From the NCBI GenBank assembly GCA_050015075.1, contig JBEKCB010000002.1, positions 96,001 through 160,000 on the forward strand: a stretch of 64,000 bases of DNA. Direction: 5' to 3'. Positions 818-14,547 of this stretch are shown piece after piece (position 1 is the first letter of the stretch; the number at the start of each line of letters is the position of its first letter). The notes under the pieces are model-generated. The model was given only the letters and a program-made list of their open reading frames with translations. It was not told the origin of the DNA and ran no database searches. This stretch comes from Candidatus Brocadiia bacterium. Its GTDB lineage: Bacteria > Planctomycetota > Brocadiia > CAIUPP01. A program made the translations under genes and the position numbers.

Positions 818-3800
818 ACCTACCGGAATTTTCCATCCGCCGGCCGGTCACGACCACGCTGATGATGGTGGCGATCCTGCTCTTCGGCATCCTCGGCTTT
901 CGGCTGCTGCCGGTGAGCGACCTGCCCAACGTGGATTTCCCGATCATCCTCGTCTCCGCCGCGCTGCCCGGCGCAAACCCGGAGACGATGGCCTCCGCGG
1001 TGGCGACGCCGCTGGAGAAGCAGTTCGCCACGATCGCGGGCATTGACTCGATGACCTCGACCAGCGGCATCGGGGTGACGCAGATCACGCTCCAGTTCAG
1101 CCTCAGCCGCAACCTGGACGCCGCCGCGCAGGACGTGCAGGCGGCGATCAGCGCCGTCCAGCGGCAGCTCCCGCAGAACATGCCCGCGCCGCCCTCGTAC
1201 CAGAAGGTCAACCCGGCCGACCAGCCGATCCTGTTCATTGCGCTCACCTCGCCGGACCTGCCGCTCTACGAACTCGACGAATTCGGCGAGACGCTCATGG
1301 CGCAGCGCATCTCCGAGGTGAGCGGCGTGGCGCAGGTGATCGTCTACGGCGCGCAGAAGTACGCCGTGCGCGTCCAGCTCGACCCGACCGAGCTGGCGCA
1401 CCGCGGGATCGGGATTGACGACGTGGCCGGCGCGGTGCAGAACGCGAACGTGAACCTGCCCACCGGCACGCTCTACGGCGAGGAGAAGGCGTACACCGTT
1501 CAGGCCAACGGCCAGCTCATGACCGCCGAGCCGTACCTGCCCACCATCGTCGCTTATCGCAACGGCCATCCCGTGCGCCTGCGCGAGATCGGCACGGCCA
1601 TCAACAGCGTCGAGAACGACAAGACCGCGGCGTGGTACATCAACCAGCGCTCGGTCATCCTCGCGATCCAACGCCAGCCGGGCACGAACACGGTGCAGGT
1701 GGCGCAGGACGTCCTGGCGCTGCTGCCGAGCTTCGGGCCCTCGCTGCCGGAGTCCGTCAAGCTGCACCTGCTCTACGACCGGTCCGTCTCGGTCCGCGCG
1801 GCGGTGCACGACGTGGAATTCACGCTCATCATCACGCTCGCGCTCGTGGTGATGGTGATTTTTCTCTTCCTGCGCAGCCTCTGGGCGACCGCGATCCCGA
1901 GCCTGGCGCTGCCGATGTCCGTCATCGGCACCTTCGCGGTCATGTATCTGCTCGACTACAGCCTAGACAACCTCTCGCTCATGGCGCTGGTGCTGGCGGT
2001 CGGGTTCGTGGTGGACGACGCGATCGTCATGCTCGAGAACATCGTCCGGCACGTGGAGATGGGCGAGAGCGTTTTCGAAGCGTCGCTGAACGGGTCGCGC
2101 GAGATCGGCTTCACCATCATCTCGATGACGCTCTCGCTGGCGGCGGTGTTCATCCCGGTGCTGTTCATGGGCGGCATCGTCGGGCGGCTGGTCCACGAGT
2201 TCGCCGTGACCATCGGCGTGGCGATCCTGATCTCCGGCTTCGTCTCGCTGACGCTCACGCCGATGCTGTGCAGCCGGTTCCTGCGCCCGCCGGCCGAGGC
2301 GCATCACGACGGCGTCTACGCGGCCTCCAAAGGCGCATTCAATGCCATGGTCCGGCTTTACGACGCCACGCTGACCTGGTCGCTGCGCCACCGGGCGACC
2401 ATGATGGGCATCACGCTCCTGACGCTGGTCGGGACCGGCCTGCTGTTCGTGGTCGTGCCGAAGGGGTTCATCGGCAGCGAGGACTACGGGCTGCTCATGT
2501 GCTGGACCGAGGCGGCGGAAGGGATTTCGTTCAAGGCGATGGCGGAGCACCAGCAGCAGGTGGCGGAGGTCATCGCGAAGGACCCGAACGTCGAGTCGTT
2601 CATGTCCACCGCCGGCCGCATCGGCACCCTCGGCTCGGACAACACCGGCATCGTGTTCATGCGGCTCAAGCCGAGGTCGGAGCGCGCGCTGTCGGCGGAC
2701 GAGCTCGTTGGGGAACTCCGCACGAAGCTCGAGAAGATCCCCGGCATCATCTGCCGCCCGCAGAACCCGCCGCCGATCCAGATCGGCGGGCGGCTGACGC
2801 AGGGCCAGTACCAGTTCACGCTGCAGTCCGGCGACGCGAAGCAGCTTTACCGCTTCGCGCCGGAGCTGGAGGCCAAGGTCCGCGCGCTGCCGGGATTCCA
2901 GGATGTCACGAGCGACCTGCGGCTGAAGAACCCGCAGATCAACGTCGAGATTGACCGCGACAAGGCCTCGGCGCTGGGCGTCTCGGCGGCGCAGATCGAG
3001 CTGGCGCTGTACGACGCGTACGGCACGCGGCAGATTTCGACGATCTACGCGCCCGGCAACACATACCAGGTCATCATGGAATTGCTGCCGGAGTACCAGT
3101 TGCGGCCGCAGTCGCTCTCGATGCTGTACGTGCAGTCCACCAGCGGCAAGCTGGTGCCGCTGAACGCGGTGGCGCGGCTGGAATCGGGCTTCGGGCCGCT
3201 GAGCGTCAACCATTCCGGCCAGTTGCCCTCGGTCACGATCTCGTTCAACCTCACGCCCGGCGTGGCGCTCGGCGATGCGGAAAATGCGGTCTCCGCCACC
3301 GTGCGCGACCTTCATCTGCCCGCTTCCATCACACCGAGTTTCCAGGGCGAGGCGCAGGCGTTTCAATCCTCGCTCTCCGGCTTGCTGTTCCTGCTGGTCA
3401 TGGCCGTCCTGGTCATCTACATGGTCCTGGGCGTCTTGTACGAGAGCTTCATCCATCCGCTGACCATCCTCTCGGGCCTGCCGAGCGCGGGGGTCGGCGC
3501 GCTGCTGACGCTGCTGATCTTCCGCGTGCCGCTGGGCCTGTACGCCTTCGTCGGGATCATCATGCTCGTCGGCCTGGTGAAGAAGAACGGCATCATGATG
3601 ATTGACTTCGCCCTCGAGGCGCAGCGCCGCGAAGGCAGGAGCGCGCTCGACGCGATCCACGAGGCATGCCTCATCCGGTTCCGGCCGATCATGATGACCA
3701 CGATGGCCGCGCTGATGGCCGCGATCCCGATCGCAATCGGCGCAGGGACCGGCGGCGGCGCGCGCCGGCCGCTCGGCCTGGCCGTCGTCGGCGGCCTGGT

Positions 3801-3924
3801 CTTCTCGCAACTTCTGACGCTGTACATCACGCCGGTGTTCTTCCTCTACATGGAGTCGTTCCGGAACTGGCTCGCAGGCGGCAGCCGGCAAAAGGCTGCG
3901 GCGACGATGGACAATGGACGATAG
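814..3924 (+). CDS. RND efflux permease (AcrB/MdtB/MdtC family)
   Basis: 1036 aa; FSIRRPVTTTL, GFVVDDAIVMLENI, GLVKKNGIMMIDFA, RFRPIMMTT. Confidence 0.95.
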   Translation: MNLPEFSIRRPVTTTLMMVAILLFGILGFRLLPVSDLPNVDFPIILVSAALPGANPETMASAVATPLEKQFATIAGIDSMTSTSGIGVTQITLQFSLSRNLDAAAQDVQAAISAVQRQLPQNMPAPPSYQKVNPADQPILFIALTSPDLPLYELDEFGETLMAQRISEVSGVAQVIVYGAQKYAVRVQLDPTELAHRGIGIDDVAGAVQNANVNLPTGTLYGEEKAYTVQANGQLMTAEPYLPTIVAYRNGHPVRLREIGTAINSVENDKTAAWYINQRSVILAIQRQPGTNTVQVAQDVLALLPSFGPSLPESVKLHLLYDRSVSVRAAVHDVEFTLIITLALVVMVIFLFLRSLWATAIPSLALPMSVIGTFAVMYLLDYSLDNLSLMALVLAVGFVVDDAIVMLENIVRHVEMGESVFEASLNGSREIGFTIISMTLSLAAVFIPVLFMGGIVGRLVHEFAVTIGVAILISGFVSLTLTPMLCSRFLRPPAEAHHDGVYAASKGAFNAMVRLYDATLTWSLRHRATMMGITLLTLVGTGLLFVVVPKGFIGSEDYGLLMCWTEAAEGISFKAMAEHQQQVAEVIAKDPNVESFMSTAGRIGTLGSDNTGIVFMRLKPRSERALSADELVGELRTKLEKIPGIICRPQNPPPIQIGGRLTQGQYQFTLQSGDAKQLYRFAPELEAKVRALPGFQDVTSDLRLKNPQINVEIDRDKASALGVSAAQIELALYDAYGTRQISTIYAPGNTYQVIMELLPEYQLRPQSLSMLYVQSTSGKLVPLNAVARLESGFGPLSVNHSGQLPSVTISFNLTPGVALGDAENAVSATVRDLHLPASITPSFQGEAQAFQSSLSGLLFLLVMAVLVIYMVLGVLYESFIHPLTILSGLPSAGVGALLTLLIFRVPLGLYAFVGIIMLVGLVKKNGIMMIDFALEAQRREGRSALDAIHEACLIRFRPIMMTTMAALMAAIPIAIGAGTGGGARRPLGLAVVGGLVFSQLLTLYITPVFFLYMESFRNWLAGGSRQKAAATMDNGR

Positions 3925-4002
3925 ACGATGGAGAGTAAGCTGGAGTCCAGCGTCCATCGTCCCTGGTCCAGCGTCCATCGTCACCCGTCCATCGTGTCCA
4001 TC
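3903..4002. repeat. Periodic (~7-bp GACGATG / CATCGTC) imperfect palindromic repeat overlapping the RND stop codon
   Basis: GACGATGGACAATGGACGATAGACGATGG followed by inverted CGTCCATCGTC units. Confidence 0.7.
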
Positions 4003-4020
4003 CTCCACTGAAAACCGACA

Positions 4021-6291
<2,271 letters not shown>

Positions 6292-6363
6292 GGCGCGTTC
6301 CTTGACCGCAACGGCGCGATGTGATTCAATGCAACTCCATTTGAATTCAGGAGGTCGCCGAAC

Positions 6364-7782
<1,419 letters not shown>

Positions 7783-7805
7783 CAGGGCGCTCCGAGAACG
7801 GCCTC

Positions 7806-7834
7806 TTGCAAATCCTCCGCGATGCGGATATATT
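7806..7834 (+). promoter_or_regulatory. Putative sigma70 promoter of tRNA-Arg
   Basis: TTGCAA-17 bp-TATATT about 55 bp upstream of the tRNA. Confidence 0.5.
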
Positions 7835-7889
7835 CTAGCGGAGAGGCGTGCATCGCCGGCGGTCGTTTCCGGCCTCGATATCCAGACTC

Positions 7890-7966
7890 GCGCCCATAGC
7901 TCAATTGGATAGAGTAACGGCCTACGAAGCCGAAGGTTGGAGGTTCAAGTCCTCCTGGGCGCGCCA
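7890..7966 (+). tRNA. tRNA-Arg(ACG)
   Basis: 77 nt cloverleaf: GCGCCCA/TGGGCGC acceptor stem, D-loop AGCTCAATTGGATAGAG, anticodon loop CT-ACG-AA, T-loop GGTTCAAGTCC, encoded CCA. Confidence 0.97.
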
Positions 7967-8234
7967 TCATCAACCAGCGCTCCGCTCGTTCAGCGGAGCG
8001 CTTTCATTTCCAGGAGGACTTGAAGCGAGCGAACGGCGCGACTAGCAGGAGCGCATCCCGGCCCGCTTCCGCGGGACGGGATAGTGAGCGAGGTGGGGCC
8101 GCGCAGGTCGTCCCGCGAAGCGGGCGACCGTAGTGGCCAAGTCCTCATGGGCGCGCCATCATCCACCAGCGCTCCGCTCGTTCAGCGGAGCGCTTTCATT
8201 TCCAGGAGGACTTGAAGCGAGCGAACGGCGCGAC
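7946..8234 (+). repeat. tRNA-linked direct repeat: 97-bp block (tRNA 3' end + hairpin + inverted tRNA arm) at 7946-8042 and 8138-8234, period 192 bp
   Basis: The two copies differ at 2 positions; each contains CCAGGAGGACTTGAA, the reverse complement of tRNA TTCAAGTCCTCCTGG. Confidence 0.92.
7976..8009 (+). terminator. Intrinsic terminator-like hairpin after the tRNA (repeated at ~8168-8201 and ~9782-9816)
   Basis: AGCGCTCCGCT-CGTTC-AGCGGAGCGCT (11-bp stem) followed by TTCATTT. Confidence 0.75.
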
Positions 8235-8274
8235 GGTCGCGGGCGCGAACGGCTGCCCGGGCCGGGTCACAGCG

Positions 8275-9522
8275 TCACTGAAAATCATCCGCCAGGCGTC
8301 GCACGAGTTTTGTCCAGCGTGCCAGACGGCTGAGGTCGCCCTCCAGCGTCTCAATGTCCTTCAGATGGATAATGAGGTGGCAACCCTTCGCGGCTTCCAA
8401 TCCCTCTCGAAGTATGCGCCGGATTTTCGCCTCGTTCCACCCGCAGCAGACCATCGCGGAGGGATTGGGCCGCCAGGAAATCACATAGTCCGCGCCGATC
8501 TGCTCCGCGCAGCGCCGCAGGTCCGCTGTGGGCGCGGCGGCGATGATGCGCAGGTTGGGAATCTTTCGAAGTATGGAGATCTTGTTGGTGAGGTTCTCGC
8601 AGCAGCCATAGGCGATGAGCCCGAACTTCTCCAGGATCGGCAACTGATACTGCAGCAGAAACTCATCGTGCATGGCCGGCGAAATCAAAGTGAATTCCTG
8701 CGCCGCGCAATAGCCCCAGAGCTGCTTGCGGAGGCGCGGGCCGGAGTTGGCCTTCGGCCATTCAAGCTCTTCGGCGTAGGGCATCGCCTGGTTCGAGTGT
8801 GAATTCAGGCTGAGGTCGCCGGCCTTCTCCGCCTCTTCCTGGTTAGTGAGAATGCCGTCGCGCATGAAGGCCAGCAGCGCGTGCAGTTCCCGGGGCGACT
8901 CGGACATGTCGAGCATGATCTGTTCAAGCCCGCGCAGCCGGGCCAGTAATGTTGAGATGTCCGCCAGGAACCCCAGGCAGGCGGGGCTGCGATCTGCGTT
9001 CACGGCCAGGATATCGCCCACGACATCGCGCAACCGCTGGACGTTCTCGGCGGTGGCTGCCTCGTCAATCCGATGATGCGGCACTTGCAGCTTCGACAGG
9101 TCCGACCACTTTTTCAACGGCGGGTCTATCCGGAACGCGCCGCCGTCCTCGCCGGGCTTGATGAACTCGATGCGAGGCCCCCAAAGGTCCTCCCAGCCGC
9201 CTCCGATCCGCGCCGCCGCCTGGGTTATCCACGGTTCGCAGATGGAATCGTCCCCGACCTCGTGCTGGAACAGCGCCATGCGGAGCGTTCGTTCATGGGT
9301 GCGCAGGAACGGGTCGCTGCAGCGCATCCGGTCGTCGCCGAAGACTTCGCGGCACCATACGTTCCACATCCCGAAGTTGGCCAGGATCAGCGGCCGGGTC
9401 CGCTGGAGGCTGTTCTTGCGGCTCCAAAGCTTGCGACGTTCGTTCTGAATCGGCAATGCCGCGATGTCGGCATACCGTCGGGCCAGGTCACGAACGACTT
9501 CCCGCTCGCTCGAAATGCTCAT
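8275..9522 (-). CDS. Uroporphyrinogen-decarboxylase/methyltransferase-like TIM-barrel hypothetical protein (cargo within the tRNA-linked unit)
   Basis: ATG MSISSERE; motifs LRGLEQIMLDM..P..LHALLAF, AQEFTLISPAMHDEFLLQYQ, AYGCCENL typical of URO-D-like proteins. Confidence 0.7.
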   Translation of the reverse strand: MSISSEREVVRDLARRYADIAALPIQNERRKLWSRKNSLQRTRPLILANFGMWNVWCREVFGDDRMRCSDPFLRTHERTLRMALFQHEVGDDSICEPWITQAAARIGGGWEDLWGPRIEFIKPGEDGGAFRIDPPLKKWSDLSKLQVPHHRIDEAATAENVQRLRDVVGDILAVNADRSPACLGFLADISTLLARLRGLEQIMLDMSESPRELHALLAFMRDGILTNQEEAEKAGDLSLNSHSNQAMPYAEELEWPKANSGPRLRKQLWGYCAAQEFTLISPAMHDEFLLQYQLPILEKFGLIAYGCCENLTNKISILRKIPNLRIIAAAPTADLRRCAEQIGADYVISWRPNPSAMVCCGWNEAKIRRILREGLEAAKGCHLIIHLKDIETLEGDLSRLARWTKLVRRLADDFQ

Positions 9523-9531
9523 GAAGTCCCC

Positions 9532-9559
9532 ATTGTAAGCCCGGGGCTGCAACTGTCAA
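9532..9559 (-). promoter_or_regulatory. Putative sigma70 promoter of the cargo gene
   Basis: TTGACA-16 bp-TACAAT on the minus strand, ending 10 bp upstream of the ATG (near-leaderless). Confidence 0.6.
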
Positions 9560-9695
9560 GCCGCAATTTGCCGGATGGTCGGCATCCACATGATGGCCCG
9601 ACGTCGAGCATCGGATTCTGACCCTCGGAATCCCGCAGGTCAAGGAAAACTCGCACGGCGAAAGAAGGCCTCTGCGCCGGCCGTCTGGACTGCGG

Positions 9696-9811
9696 TGAGA
9701 GCCGGGTGGCGCCGCGCAGGTCGTCCCGTGCAGCGGGGCGACCGTAGTGGCCAAGTCCTCCTGGGCGCGCCATCAGCAGCCAGCGCTCCGCTCGTTCAGC
9801 GGAGCGCTTTC
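9696..9811 (+). repeat. Third tRNA-linked repeat copy (right arm + tRNA 3' end ending in CCA at 9772 + hairpin)
   Basis: GCCGCGCAGGTCGTCCCG..GGGCGACCGTAGTGGCCAAGTCCTCCTGGGCGCGCCA matches ~8098-8158; the same hairpin follows. Confidence 0.9.
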
Positions 9812-9830
9812 GTTTTATGGAAGCCGCGGT

Positions 9831-10853
9831 TCATATCATCAGCACCGCCGACGCCTCGATGCGGCTCTCTTTGACCATCCGGAGCGCACGGTTGGCCTCG
9901 GAGAGCGGGAACTGCTCGGTGCGCGTTTCGATGCGCATCTCGCGGGCGAGCGCCAGCAGTTCGCGGCCGTCCTGCCGCGTGGCGTTCGCCACGCTCGTCA
10001 ACGTCTTCTCGTGGTACAGATCGCGGCGATAGTCGAGCGGCGGCGTCGCGCTCATGGCGATTCCGGCGAGTGTGGCCGTGCCGCCCTTCTCCAGCGCGCG
10101 CAGCATCTCGGGCACCAGCGCGCCGGCGGGCGCGAAGCTGATGGCGCGGTCGAGCTTGTGCGGCGGCTCCTCTTCGGCCCGGCCGACCCACGCCGCGCCG
10201 AGTTCCCGCGCCAGCTTCTGGTGCCGCTCCGCGCGGGTGAAGACATACACCTCGCATTTCCAGTGCCGCGCGATCTGGAGGACGATGTGCGCCGACGCGC
10301 CGAAGCCGTACAGGCCCAGACGGAGACCCTGAGCGTGAGTCGAAGGGCCGCCCGGCCGGATGCCGCACCGCCGCAGCGCGCGGTAGCCGACGATCCCCGC
10401 GCAGAGCAGCGGCGCGGCCTCGTGATCGCCGTAGCCTTCCGGGATCGGATACGCGAAATCCGCAGGGACGCACGCGAACTGCGCGTAGCCGCCGTCCGCG
10501 TCGAGGCCGGTGAATTTCGCGCGCTCGCAGAGATTTTCATTTCCCGTGTTACAGAACCTGCATACGCCGCAAGTCCAGCGCAGCCATGCGATGCCGACGC
10601 GGTCGCCCAGCTTGAATCCGGTCGCGCCGGGGCCGAGTTTCTCCACGACGCCGACGACCTGGTGGCCCGGCACGATCGGCAGCTTCGACGGCGTCAAGTC
10701 CCCTTCAGCGACGTGCAGGTCCGTGTGGCAGACGCCGCAGGCGCGCACGCGAACGAGCAGCTCGCCCGCCGCCGGCTCGGGCGCCGGCAGTTCCGCCGCC
10801 CGGAGCGGCGCGCTCTCGATCGGCGCGGGAGCGCGCAGTTGCATGGCGTTCAT
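9831..10853 (-). CDS. Zinc-dependent alcohol dehydrogenase family protein (AdhP-like)
   Basis: ACGVCHTDLH, VPGHQVVG, CGVCRFCNTGNENLC, APLLCAG, GLYGFGASAH. Confidence 0.92.
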   Translation of the reverse strand: MNAMQLRAPAPIESAPLRAAELPAPEPAAGELLVRVRACGVCHTDLHVAEGDLTPSKLPIVPGHQVVGVVEKLGPGATGFKLGDRVGIAWLRWTCGVCRFCNTGNENLCERAKFTGLDADGGYAQFACVPADFAYPIPEGYGDHEAAPLLCAGIVGYRALRRCGIRPGGPSTHAQGLRLGLYGFGASAHIVLQIARHWKCEVYVFTRAERHQKLARELGAAWVGRAEEEPPHKLDRAISFAPAGALVPEMLRALEKGGTATLAGIAMSATPPLDYRRDLYHEKTLTSVANATRQDGRELLALAREMRIETRTEQFPLSEANRALRMVKESRIEASAVLMI

Positions 10854-10865
10854 GGCAAGGTTTCC

Positions 10866-11022
10866 TCACCACCAAATTGCCAAGGCACAAAGAGACAACG
10901 GCTTCCACCACGGAATACACGGAGCACACCGAATGCCTTTCCTAAACAACTTCAGTGTCTTCCGTGTGTTCCGTGGTTGCAATATCAGTTGGCGTTCTTG
11001 GTGCCTTGGCGTCTTGGTGGTT
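10866..11022 (+). repeat. ~157-bp nested periodic palindromic element, copy 1 of 3
   Basis: Outer arms CACCACCAA..CCAAGGCACAAAG / CTTGGTGCCTTGGCGTCTTGGTGG; inner arms CCACGGAATACACGGAGCACAC / GTGTCTTCCGTGTGTTCCGTGG. Confidence 0.9.
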
Positions 11023-11036
11023 CATGAAGGGAGCGG

Positions 11037-12041
11037 TCAATCCCAGTATTGCTGCCGATGCTGCCGGAAGAACTCGACCGTGCGGCGGACGCCTTCGCGC
11101 AGCGGCGTGCGCGGCTCCCAGCCGAGCGCGCGGCGGATCTTCGTGATGTCCGCCCGGTAGTTGCCGATCTCGATCTTCGCCTTGTCGGAGGGAAACGGCT
11201 TGTCGGTGATCGTCCCTCGGCCGGCGATCTCGACGGCGATCTCCGCCGCCTCGCGCAGCGAAGTCGCCACGCCGCTGCCCACGTTGAACACCTGGCCGTT
11301 TGCCGCCTCACTGGCGGCAGCGAGGAGGAACGCCTCGACCACGTCGTCCACGTAATTGAAATCGCGCTGCTGCGCGCCGCCGCCGAAGAGCTGGATCTCC
11401 TGCCCGTCGAGCGCCCGGCGGATGAACCAGCTCAGCACGCCCTGCCGGCTGGTGCGCATGTGGTGGCGCGGGCCGAACGTGTTCGTCAGCCGCAGCGAGC
11501 ACGCGCGGATGCCGTACACGTTGTTGTACAGAATGTGGTACCACTCGCCGGCCATCTTGTTGATCCCGTTCACGTCGGTCGGCCGCTGCGGATGCTCCTC
11601 GTCCACCGGTAGCCGTTCGATCTTGCCGTACTGCCCGCGCGTGCCGGCGAAGAGCACCTTCACGCCCGGATTGTTCTTCTTGCACGCCTCCAGGAGCGAG
11701 AGCTGGCTGCGGCAGTTGATCTCGAGGTCGGTGTACGGGTCGTTCATCGAGTCAATATGGCTGACCTGGCCGGCGAGGTTGAAAATGAAATCCTGGCCGC
11801 GGACGAGGTGGTGCATCGAACTCTCGTCGCGCACGTCGGCTATATTGACGCGGACCTTGTCCTCGATGCCGGCGAGGTTGAACCGGTTGCCGCCGTACTG
11901 CGGGATCAGCGAATCCACCAGCGTCAACTCCGCGCAATGCCCCGCCAGCGCGTGGGCGAGATTGCTGCCGATGAACCCCAGCCCGCCGGTGACCAGGACC
12001 CGCTTGCCGTGGAACGCCGACACGTCGGCAACCATTCGCAT
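11037..12041 (-). CDS. NAD-dependent nucleotide-sugar epimerase/dehydratase (extended SDR)
   Basis: VLVTGGLGFIGSNL, FNLAGQVSH, LRLTNTFGP, RDFNYVDDVV, LGWEPRTPLREG; exact start uncertain (12035-12059). Confidence 0.9.
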   Translation of the reverse strand: MRMVADVSAFHGKRVLVTGGLGFIGSNLAHALAGHCAELTLVDSLIPQYGGNRFNLAGIEDKVRVNIADVRDESSMHHLVRGQDFIFNLAGQVSHIDSMNDPYTDLEINCRSQLSLLEACKKNNPGVKVLFAGTRGQYGKIERLPVDEEHPQRPTDVNGINKMAGEWYHILYNNVYGIRACSLRLTNTFGPRHHMRTSRQGVLSWFIRRALDGQEIQLFGGGAQQRDFNYVDDVVEAFLLAAASEAANGQVFNVGSGVATSLREAAEIAVEIAGRGTITDKPFPSDKAKIEIGNYRADITKIRRALGWEPRTPLREGVRRTVEFFRQHRQQYWD

Positions 12042-12192
12042 CTCCCTGCCAGACAGCATGTTAGAACAACTACGTCATAAGATGCGTCAAAGTGGCCTAT
12101 TGCGACAAATTGGATTCGTTTTTTCAAATCGCATTATGCGCGTCAACCCCTTTCCCGCCGGCACGTTGCGACTTCTTAACTACGCAGGCAGC

Positions 12193-12221
12193 AGTATACC
12201 ATAATATTTCTGACTTGTCAA
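12193..12221 (-). promoter_or_regulatory. Near-consensus sigma70 promoter upstream of the epimerase
   Basis: TTGACA-17 bp-TATACT on the minus strand. Confidence 0.65.
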
Positions 12222-12297
12222 GCGGCGCCATGCTTTTTTCGCACCGCCGCGGATGAACTCCGATATCGCAACTCGCATTGGATATGTCTTCGCCTTT

Positions 12298-14547
12298 TCA
12301 GTGTGTTTCCAGCGGGGCCAAGACCGGGTTTTTGGACCGCGTGCCGTTCAGCCGTATGACCAGGGTGCCTTCCGCATTGGTCGTCCGCATCTGTCCTTTG
12401 TGGACGGTAAAGGTGTACAGCGTCAAACCGTTGCCCCCGGACTGGGCGGAAACCGCCACATCGTAGCCGGTATTCGGCTGGAGTGAAAAAAGGTAGCAGG
12501 TGGTGTCGGCCTGGCCCAGCAAGTCGAAAGCCCTCGTCAGGGAATCCGTCCCGGCATCGGTATTGATGCAGAAAACGGCGGCCCGGCTGCCGGCGCCGCT
12601 GTCCACCACCGCGCCCACGGCGTTCTCGCCCTTGACGAGACGTGAGACGGGCGCGCCGGCCGTCACGCTGGGGAGCGCCGCGAGGACCGCCACGATCTGC
12701 TCTTCCTTGCCGGCGGCGAACATATTATTGATTGAGGCGGAAACTTGTTTCGCAAACCAGCCGGGCCCGACCGGGCCATTTTCATACGTGAGGTTTGCCG
12801 GGTAAAGGATTTTGGCATTCAGGGCGGCGCTCGCGCCTGTGACTTTAATCACCTGGTCCGCGGAATCAACGGTCGCCGCAAAGGCTTGATCGTAGTCCAG
12901 GTGCCACTTGGTCGGCCGGTTGGCGGCGGAAGTCTGGGACACCCGCAGTTCATCGCCCACGACAAAGATGTTCGGCGGCAAAAACACCAGGTGGCGATAC
13001 CAGCGATCGAGATGGATGGAGTCGGGATAGCACGCCGTGGCGTCGCCCACCAGGCAGGTGTACTCCGGCCGCCGGTCGGTCCTCAACAAATTCGCCTGAT
13101 ATCGCGGATCCCGCTGCTGGTGGGCGCCTTCGATGGTGAGCGTACTGTGGAGATTGCTCTCCAGTTGGCCATAGCACGGCGGGACGGCCAGATAATCGCC
13201 GTTGCAATAGATGTCGAAACTGTTGGCCTGGGCATGGACATGCAGATAGTTTTCCAACAGCGCCGTGTCCCCGCCCAGGACGGTTGTCCGGGCGCTGTGC
13301 CCTCCCACGGGCGAGCAGGTGAAGGCGCAGACCACGTCCGTTTTTTTCCAACCGGTCCGCATGATGCACAGTCCCTGATTGGCGAAACAACGGTACCCGG
13401 GCAGGTCGTCGGGCGGAGTGGGCGCCACGGCCGGGTCGTACCACAGAAAATTCCAGCCCACGCAGTGCAGCGCCGGCACTATCGAATCCTTGCTGACGGC
13501 CCAGTTGCTTTTGATGCTCCTGTTCCGGGTAAGGTAGCCGAGATCCAGGATCTCATCCTGGGCCGCCAGCCACTGGGCGTGACCGTCTTTCTGCTCATGG
13601 GCCAGCTTGCGCAGAAGCTGGCAGGAGGCGGAGCCGATCACGTTATACCGGCCGTCGCGAAACGAATCGTGGTGGTCAATGTAGGTATTGTCCGGCAGCC
13701 AGTTGTACATCCGGTAGGCAACGGCGTTTCGCGCCATGCCCGTCTGGAAGAGGTCCTCTCCGGTTATCCTTCTATTCACGTCGAACAGCACATAGGTCAG
13801 GGACATGGCATAGACCCAGTCCGCCGCTCCCTCCATCCAGGCGCCGTCCTGCCCGCAAATGTTCATGTCCTTTTTCAGGATGTCCAAAAAATAGTTGAGC
13901 CACTTGGGACCCGACTCGTTTTCATAATAGAGGGCGGCCGCGCCGACTCCCAGTCCGGTGATCGGCAGCCAATGGTCGTGGCAGAGGTAGATGCGGCCCC
14001 ACCAGTCCGTGGTCGTGCCCTTCACGCCGCGCTGGACAATGGCGGCAAGATGCCCGCTGAGCTGGCTCCGTTCCGCCGGCGTCAGGTCGTTGTAGAGCAT
14101 GTCGTAACCGCTGGCCAGCGCCATCGCATAGGCGCCGATGAAATGGTCGCCGCCGAAGCCCTCAGGATAGGCGCCGAAGGCCAGCAGCCATTTTTTCGCC
14201 GCCTGCAGGTAGGCCGTATCCCCGGTCAGATGGTACGTCAGCGCCATATCGAAGATGTAGGATGCGCCGTTTTCGCAGTAGATCTGCATGGTGTCAATGT
14301 TCGTGGACAAGGAAGCCGGCGGAATGGGATCGAAGCCGACGAATTTATCCGCGCATTTTTTCAGGTTGTCGAAATACGCCTTGTGCGTGGTGGCGGCGGC
14401 CTGCCTCAGTTTGGGGACATCCGCCAGGGTAAAATAGAGATACGGATGAGTTGGGTTCTCCTCGCTCGCCGCGTTCGCCTGCATTCCCCGAGACGGATAC
14501 GATAAAAGAGACAGCAGCGACAGGCAGAGCATCCATTGTTTTCTCAT
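12298..14547 (-). CDS. Secreted heparinase II/III-like (DUF4962-type) polysaccharide lyase-like protein
   Basis: Signal peptide MRKQWMLCLSLL; HPYLYFT..L, DGAWMEGAADW.Y, GLCIMRTGW, HVHAQANSF, HSTLTIEG. Confidence 0.65.
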   Translation of the reverse strand: MRKQWMLCLSLLSLLSYPSRGMQANAASEENPTHPYLYFTLADVPKLRQAAATTHKAYFDNLKKCADKFVGFDPIPPASLSTNIDTMQIYCENGASYIFDMALTYHLTGDTAYLQAAKKWLLAFGAYPEGFGGDHFIGAYAMALASGYDMLYNDLTPAERSQLSGHLAAIVQRGVKGTTTDWWGRIYLCHDHWLPITGLGVGAAALYYENESGPKWLNYFLDILKKDMNICGQDGAWMEGAADWVYAMSLTYVLFDVNRRITGEDLFQTGMARNAVAYRMYNWLPDNTYIDHHDSFRDGRYNVIGSASCQLLRKLAHEQKDGHAQWLAAQDEILDLGYLTRNRSIKSNWAVSKDSIVPALHCVGWNFLWYDPAVAPTPPDDLPGYRCFANQGLCIMRTGWKKTDVVCAFTCSPVGGHSARTTVLGGDTALLENYLHVHAQANSFDIYCNGDYLAVPPCYGQLESNLHSTLTIEGAHQQRDPRYQANLLRTDRRPEYTCLVGDATACYPDSIHLDRWYRHLVFLPPNIFVVGDELRVSQTSAANRPTKWHLDYDQAFAATVDSADQVIKVTGASAALNAKILYPANLTYENGPVGPGWFAKQVSASINNMFAAGKEEQIVAVLAALPSVTAGAPVSRLVKGENAVGAVVDSGAGSRAAVFCINTDAGTDSLTRAFDLLGQADTTCYLFSLQPNTGYDVAVSAQSGGNGLTLYTFTVHKGQMRTTNAEGTLVIRLNGTRSKNPVLAPLETH

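Follow-up and report, generated by a model that had tools for sequence, protein, structure and literature searches.

Two small integrase-less units in tandem behind a tRNA-Arg(ACG) gene of an uncultured peat-bog planctomycete, probably derived from insertion at the T-loop

Elements related to ICESt1 decay to cis-mobilizable elements (CIMEs), which retain only attL and attR and then accrete in tandem, as described in the available part of one account (PMC5704250). Integrases that target tRNA genes use the anticodon loop and the T-loop as symmetric crossover sublocations, according to an extract of another (bioRxiv 10.1101/2020.11.02.365908), and mycobacteriophage Ms6 integrates at the T-loops of tRNA-Ala, according to the accessible text of a third (PMC1762012). 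In Prochlorococcus, partial tRNAs lie between the stacked or decayed elements of tycheposon islands (excerpt of bioRxiv 10.1101/2020.12.28.424599), and a recombinase-free mode of insertion with long target duplication has been inferred from genome comparisons (available part of PMC2853133). Here we describe a locus in a 64,000-nt stretch of DNA (the window; positions 96,001 to 160,000 of contig JBEKCB010000002.1, assembly GCA_050015075.1) from a Candidatus Brocadiia bacterium, an uncultured peat-bog planctomycete, in which a tRNA-Arg(ACG) gene is followed by an array of two tandem units that have common arms, one unit empty and the other carrying a single gene. On balance, and with confidence that lies only a little on the favourable side, we read this array as two integrase-less islets (CIME-like remnants or satellites) that arose from site-specific insertion at the T-loop.

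The full order of the array is A-L-X-R-A-L-gene-P-R-A (Table 1), where A is a 64-nt block present in three copies, L and R are the left and right arms, X is the core of the empty unit, and P is a copy of a promoter-plus-leader repeat. The direct copies start at CAAGTCC in the T-loop, a canonical crossover sublocation, and occupy 7946–8042, 8138–8234 (98%) and 9752–9848 (76%), the likeness of the last stopping past the hairpin; pairs of A copies have 2, 3 and 5 differences in 64 positions, and the hairpin in every A copy scores as an intrinsic terminator. The first 15 nt of L are the exact reverse complement of 7944–7958 (T-loop, 3′ T-stem and 3 nt of the acceptor), giving perfect inverted pairs with 8010–8024 and with 8202–8216, and inverted ends of 13–15 nt are present on the units. 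The two R copies match at 87% over 8086–8124 and 9699–9737 in the repeat search, with 5 mismatches and 1 indel between R1 and R2. In alignment R bears no relation to the 5′ portion of the tRNA, nor does it to the rest of the genome, and it is hence foreign arm DNA and not a decayed duplicate of the tRNA; X found no further match across the genome. The original prediction, made from the sequence of this stretch, had described a tRNA-Arg followed by a hairpin and a left arm with an exact inverted copy of the T-arm, two units with the same arms around an empty and a gene-bearing core and with regenerated tRNA tails, and a hairpin recurring without a left arm past the last tail; all of this agrees with what we find, except that the hairpin after the tRNA is not a separate feature but part of the repeated block. 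The tRNA-Arg(ACG) gene is the sole tRNA gene of the window, and an Rfam search of 7000–11000 at E up to 1 detected nothing besides this tRNA.

Table 1. Positions in the window of the tRNA gene, the parts of the array and the flanking gene.
Feature	Position	Strand	Method or remark
Promoter-like site of the tRNA gene, TTGCAA-17-TATATT	7806-7834	+	
tRNA-Arg(ACG), intact, CCA encoded	7890-7966	+	ARAGORN; Rfam tRNA, 66 bits
Block A1: tRNA T-loop to CCA, terminator hairpin (7976-8002) and TTTCATTT	7946-8009	+	
Left arm L1	8010-8042	+	Repeat and inverted-pair search, folding
Core X of empty unit 1, GC-rich hairpin CCCGGCCCGC/GCGGGACGGG	8043-8085	+	Folding
Right arm R1	about 8086-8137	+	Own hairpin, not tRNA-derived
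Block A2	8138-8201	+	2/64 differences from A1
Left arm L2	8202-8234	+	0/33 differences from L1
Cargo gene, 415 aa and stop	8275-9522	-	Points toward the tRNA
Promoter-like site of the cargo gene, TTGACA-16-TACAAT	9559-9532	-	Just upstream of the start; 11/12 consensus positions
P, copy of the promoter-plus-leader repeat	about 9557-9698	-	Far end cut off at the R2 start
Second promoter-like site, TTGACC-17-CAGAAT	9643-9615	-	Within P
Right arm R2	about 9699-9751	+	
Block A3: tRNA tail and terminator hairpin	9752-9815	+	No L after it; abuts the end of the alcohol dehydrogenase gene
Zinc alcohol dehydrogenase (ADH) gene	9831-10853	-	Flanking; chromosomal side of the array

The inverted arm sets this tRNA gene apart. 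Within the 66-contig genome, an inverted 12-mer of a gene's own tail was found within 5 kb of 1 of the 48 tRNA/tmRNA genes (46 tRNA and 2 tmRNA), namely tRNA-Arg(ACG), and within 200 nt the inverted tail copy measures 15 nt here, compared to 11 nt for the runner-up, with no upstream control above 10 nt; the repeats of the array are therefore not due to chance. An 11-nt inverted match behind tRNA-Leu(UAA) was set aside, as it apparently lies inside an open reading frame (ORF) and lacks a similar layout. Sampling of 401 genomes of the phylum for a T-arm followed by an inverted arm at 35–65 nt spacing returned a single genome, and the expectation that other tRNA genes would be followed by an inverted copy of their own tail was thus not borne out in either survey. 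Among 5 genomes of the order, one has extra copies of the tRNA tail, and in four other genera tRNA-Arg(ACG) has its own terminator, different neighbours and no inverted arm. As predicted, the junctions can fold into nested hairpins: A1 with L1 folds at −29.7 kcal/mol (z −7.0, with none of 200 shuffled sequences as good) and A2 with L2 at z −4.6, compared to only −2.1 against shuffles for the A3 region, and folding revealed hairpins in X and R as well. We also considered R with A as a tRNA-like small RNA, and rejected this since the 5′ half of the T-stem is absent.

Ordinary site-specific integration explains most of this anatomy, because the T-loop, where the repeat starts, is the classic place of crossover. 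The attachment site would be block A, that is, the T-loop through the CCA end and the terminator of tRNA-Arg(ACG). A circular element with an R-A-L attachment site would have crossed over, within the T-loop, with the A copy of the chromosome; the A copy of the element would have rebuilt an intact tRNA and terminator, and the original tail would have been displaced to the far end. The related mini-unit L-X-R may have been added by a further integration, or via duplication and internal deletion, and the recombinase may act in trans from elsewhere in the genome or have been lost by deletion. The stretch R1-A2-L2 is arranged as an attP-like junction would be, and the junction of a circle would be indistinguishable from it in Logan contigs; the circle itself, the type of enzyme, the sequence in which events took place and any present mobility of the units are inferred. 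The T-loop boundary, the foreign R, the rebuilt tRNA, variable occupancy in relatives and the many tRNA islands of the genome all fit insertion at a tRNA.

No integrase is encoded in the units or nearby, in agreement with the original prediction. Six-frame reading of the arms disclosed no recombinase, and nothing to suggest that the arms are the severed end of an integrase gene; the 415-aa gene is the only ORF in the units and belongs to no mobility family; the contig of the window (C2) has no match to PF00589 or PF01797 and a single match to PF00239 (C2:226410), outside the window; and the genes within ~8 kb are ordinary, comprising RND efflux, a UvrD-type helicase, LysS, ADH, an epimerase, a DUF4962 protein, HypB and HypA. 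Elsewhere in this organism tRNA genes are a major insertion target. Five other tRNA tails of the genome are duplicated, all as plain direct repeats: those of Arg-CCT, Cys, Leu-GAG and Leu-CAG start at the anticodon arm and that of Pro-UGG at the T-arm, and the Leu-GAG repeat takes in the terminator hairpin, as block A does. Tyrosine-integrase genes or fragments adjoin three tRNAs, Pro(CGG), Cys and Arg(CCT), among seven tyrosine-integrase matches in the genome, none of which is on the contig of the window, and all three serine-recombinase genes (C14:74868, C40:29056 and C2:226410) lie 1–1.5 kb behind tRNAs (Ala, Pro-UGG and Met, respectively). Candidate enzymes of the tyrosine class are encoded at C23:2243, C17:45515 and C9:29389.

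The comparison with described systems is closest for CIMEs. Like these elements, as far as the available part of their account goes, the array keeps attL and attR, lacks integration and transfer genes, has tandem units split by an att copy, and targets a tRNA 3′ end. It differs in that its units are far smaller (192 bp for the empty and 1.6 kb for the gene-bearing one), in its phylum, Planctomycetota, in that each unit begins with an inverted copy of the T-arm, and in that no parent integrative conjugative or integrative mobilizable element (ICE/IME) or matching integrase was found in the genome collection, the class, the phylum sample or viral contigs. With T-loop tyrosine integrases it shares, on the evidence of the extracts cited above, a repeat from the T-loop through CCA and an intact rebuilt tRNA, but none of these enzymes adjoins the site here, and the direct repeat runs 43 nt past the CCA, through the terminator. 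The class of enzyme may differ too, serine recombinases also being found beside tRNAs of this genome. Tycheposons, in the part of their description at hand, are likewise the outcome of successive integrations at one tRNA that push older elements inward and leave partial tRNAs amid cargo; they carry integrases and replication genes, however, and form a large family, whereas the present array is confined to one locus and is not known to have an autonomous member.

Small islets that lack an integrase and sit at tRNA genes show how individual accessory genes can be gained and lost among close strains with no mobility gene on board, and this general kind is already well described in the literature. 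As it stands, the present locus adds an example and not a principle, although a tidy one, with a rebuilt tRNA and terminator, an empty beside a loaded unit, and several states of the site in relatives. Were the inverted arm needed for recombination, it would represent a new kind of site architecture; we found no mention of an inverted T-arm copy in such sites in the literature, in searches that were not aimed at this feature.

The state of the site differs between close relatives, as the original prediction had anticipated, although no other cargo with the same arms was found. In the sister species, one contig (G001:C29) has the order end of lysS, tRNA-Arg, A, 25 nt of L, gene and ADH, with a cargo homologue of 95% amino acid identity and the ADH gene about 35 nt past the start of the gene. 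This contig is without X (unit 1), R, the second A and P, and window 9533–9814 has no counterpart in it. Overall identity between the two species is 94%, so that retention of the inverted arm in the sister says little. A second contig of the same bin (G001:C19) reads helicase, lysS, tRNA and then unrelated sequence to its end, and its continuation was not found in the G001 bin. Given that this bin holds two versions of the lysS-tRNA-Arg stretch (C29 and C19) but a single ADH gene, it is likely a mix of two strains at the locus. Separately, in G001:C19 the tRNA-Arg gene is split from its promoter by a ~150-nt AT-richer insertion (L015:2238-2385); its ends are inverted repeats (CTAGTG...CACTAG), it contains hairpins, and it looks like a miniature inverted-repeat transposable element (MITE). 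In sequencing run X6, a contig from a ~95%-similar strain links an A-type hairpin, of which it has 38 nt, to window position 9823, at the end of ADH, by way of 40 other letters, with 8 differences in 178 nt of ADH and a depth of 22.3. The depths in the same run are 27.1 for the shared contig of tRNA and hairpin, 7.5 for unit 1 and 6.9–7.9 for the gene, and these depths and the contig fit two strains, one of them without L, unit 1 and the gene. An empty site in the related strain is hence likely, and variable occupancy in relatives is as expected for inserted DNA.

Several findings weigh against insertion of mobile islets. The sister keeps L and the gene without R-A, and an extra deletion is needed to account for this. 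The empty site is put at likely and no higher because it is seen in a single Logan contig from a single run, with 38 nt on the hairpin side. The R copies have diverged more than the A+L copies (6/53 compared to 2/97; Fisher p 0.02), a gap that could be compatible with either history. Standard models of integrase action assign no function to the inverted arm; this 15-nt copy of the T-arm falls outside the favoured model and is left unexplained by it, and we would only tentatively read it as part of the site architecture of the element. As for the cargo, its GC content at third codon positions (0.80) falls at the 26th percentile of 1866 long ORFs, so that it is not a compositional outlier, and composition gave no signal of a foreign origin; since a genus-typical promoter repeat drives the gene, the latter seems native or was acquired from a close relative. 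The arms are also narrowly distributed: the L junction (exact 21-mer) is shared, within the species-level genome collection, by a single further record, that of the sister species G001; the R-A junction (≤2 mismatches) in 1 of 132 class genomes, namely our own (G000); and neither in viral contigs. Finally, the genome collection, the class genomes and viral contigs yielded no related element that combines these arms with an integrase.

In a phylum-wide BLAST with L+X+R (128 nt), 81 of the 401 sampled genomes gave short weak matches (19–56 nt), which were discarded: none spans an arm, the best (29 nt, in G152) lies in apparent coding DNA, and none of five fetched match loci has a tRNA. These are taken as GC-rich chance matches.

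The foremost alternative, which we consider rather unlikely although still deserving weight, involves no mobile element at all: the gene would be a resident of the tRNA-ADH interval, shaped by local rearrangement (unequal crossing-over or slippage between the terminator hairpins, insertion of the P repeat and small deletions) or by recombinase-free long target duplication. Restriction of the arms to this locus and genus, the ordinary composition of the gene and a P repeat native to the genus are all in keeping with such a history, as is the near identity of the A+L copies, such as would follow a recent duplication. So is the sister, where the gene occupies the same position but R-A is absent: a syntenic resident gene beside a one-off local duplication had been named by the original prediction as the outcome contrary to it, and this was found in part, the gene being syntenic in the sister without the right arm or the second tail. 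Duplication alone, however, cannot make R and X, because neither has a source in the genome or the sister contig. A local history also does not account for a T-loop boundary shared by R-A and the inverted copy in L, for a related strain that appears, from one contig, to lack L, unit 1 and the gene, or for the finding that an ADH, epimerase or DUF4962 neighbour accompanies the gene at 1 of 91 homologue loci only, this one (L021) being our own locus; adjacency of the gene and ADH is thus not conserved. Insertions with long target duplication, in the available text of PMC2853133, have no mobility genes, are bounded by unique direct repeats of >30 bp and leave a single repeat copy in the relative without the unit, much as seen here, but the mode was defined on restriction-modification genes and non-tRNA repeats, and that text excludes repeats resembling tRNAs, treating them as probable outcomes of site-specific recombination.

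We give still less credence to the palindromic junction, made up of tRNA tail, terminator hairpin and inverted T-arm copy, being the dedicated site of a tiny non-autonomous type of cassette, which a recombinase encoded elsewhere would stack at the tRNA end. If that were the case, strains of this genus of peat planctomycetes could capture and exchange individual genes together with their promoters, and units of 192 bp that are empty as well.

Integrons provide the model for the capture system that the original prediction had proposed. Their cassettes are mostly promoterless, lie in one orientation and are read from a common promoter, and clusters of attC sites without an integrase (CALINs) are recognized by the attC boxes RYYYAAC ... 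GTTRRRY. In an integron-like system, a folded single-stranded junction would be recombined in trans, stacking cassettes with interchangeable cores. The array resembles a CALIN in having stacked units split by foldable imperfect palindromes of 60–140 nt with no integrase nearby, and two units with common arms and different cores, junctions that fold far better than shuffled sequences, the lack of a recombinase in cis and two Y1 (HUH) transposase genes elsewhere in the genome are all what such a system would call for. Yet the fold is mostly the tRNA's own intrinsic terminator, the last junction is without L, the sister has L without R, and the gene is preceded by two promoter-like sites of its own and runs counter to the array, in the orientation opposite to that of integron cassettes. 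No attC boxes were seen in 7944–8042 and 8138–8234, inspected by eye for this consensus and not with an attC model, and the other tRNA islands of the genome are plain direct repeats. Above all, there are two units at a single locus in a single genus: with no second locus for L or R in the genome, an inverted arm at 1 of 48 tRNA/tmRNA genes, the L junction in one other species and the R-A junction in 1 of 132 class genomes, a general integron-like capture system is not supported, and we regard it as the more improbable by a shade than the dedicated cassette site.

A MITE or insertion-sequence-type transposon was rejected, as TTTCATTT and GCGCGCCA on the flanks do not form a duplication and the units occur at a single locus. 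For a palindrome-associated transposable element of the IS200/IS605 type the picture is mixed: X and R have hairpins and there are two Y1_Tnp genes, both on other contigs, but dispersed copies are absent and 64-nt flanking repeats are not expected of such elements. That the repeats stem from mis-joined mixed-strain reads in a metagenome bin is scarcely credible: although the genome comes from a bin of 66 contigs with 3.8% contamination and the sister bin has two versions of the lysS-tRNA stretch, an independent metagenome contig (L021; 147,659 nt) agrees letter for letter with window 2278–13206, the whole array included, Logan contigs from other peat runs cover 7974–8194 (X6) and 8168–9809 (X2 and X4) with zero differences, and each of the three A copies has substitutions of its own. 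The peat metagenomes listed as containing the locus comprise 23 DNA runs, and contigs of an RNA run (X24) match window 7700–7925 only.

The cargo gene is complete, with 415 codons, has its own promoter and points to the tRNA, as had been predicted. Its label as URO-D-like, however, stands only as a weak likeness. No Pfam or NCBIfam family matched at threshold, URO-D (PF01208) remaining below it (E 0.035; 13.6 bits compared to a cut-off of 23.9), and weak URO-D matches were obtained for 6 of 24 homologues of the cargo (best E 0.0017). A profile search of the PDB gave no solved relative, and in the Atlas the protein falls among unnamed clusters, a neighbouring cluster having 30% URO-D members (score 0.97, TM 0.89). 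These matches are a lead to a distant relation and not to membership, and the cargo belongs to a family that is widespread, unannotated and weakly URO-D-like. One or other relative of it is encoded in 122 metagenome stretches; among the best 80 of these, all are at most 66% identical except at our own locus, so that the metagenome scan contained no strain variants of the cargo (one locus at 100%, the next at ≤66%). Paralogues in the genome itself are 35% and 30% identical. Any tRNA is present at 6 of the best 80 of the 122 metagenome loci, and beside the gene in L021 only.

The P repeat has about 30 copies by BLAST in the genome, of ~140 nt and dispersed (e.g. L105-L124), and its matches are confined to this genus. 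From sequence features, it reads as a putative sigma-70-type promoter (TTGACC/TTGACA-17-CAGAAT) with a conserved leader that includes the palindrome GATTCTGAC...TCAGAATC. Copies lie upstream of many genes: among 20 ORFs scanned, 8 are glycoside-hydrolase or polysaccharide-related, 6 belong to other families and 6 to none. Rfam had no match to the copy in the window, which is cut exactly at the start of R, whereas other copies continue; some of these extend into a further conserved stretch of ~150 nt. Beside another P copy, outside the window at C26:62040-62120, there is an orphan tRNA-like 3′ end (T-arm, acceptor strand and CCA) with a promoter-like TTGCGG-18-TAAAAT in front and a hairpin after it; ARAGORN calls no tRNA there, and this tail is absent from every full tRNA of the genome.

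One further observation concerns the flank of the array. Contig L021 has 16 differences from the window, all at 13207–14347, the other 11 kb being identical; 14 of the 16 cluster in 190 nt (13207–13394) inside the DUF4962 (heparinase-like) gene, in what appears to be a tract of local recombination or else a variable patch.

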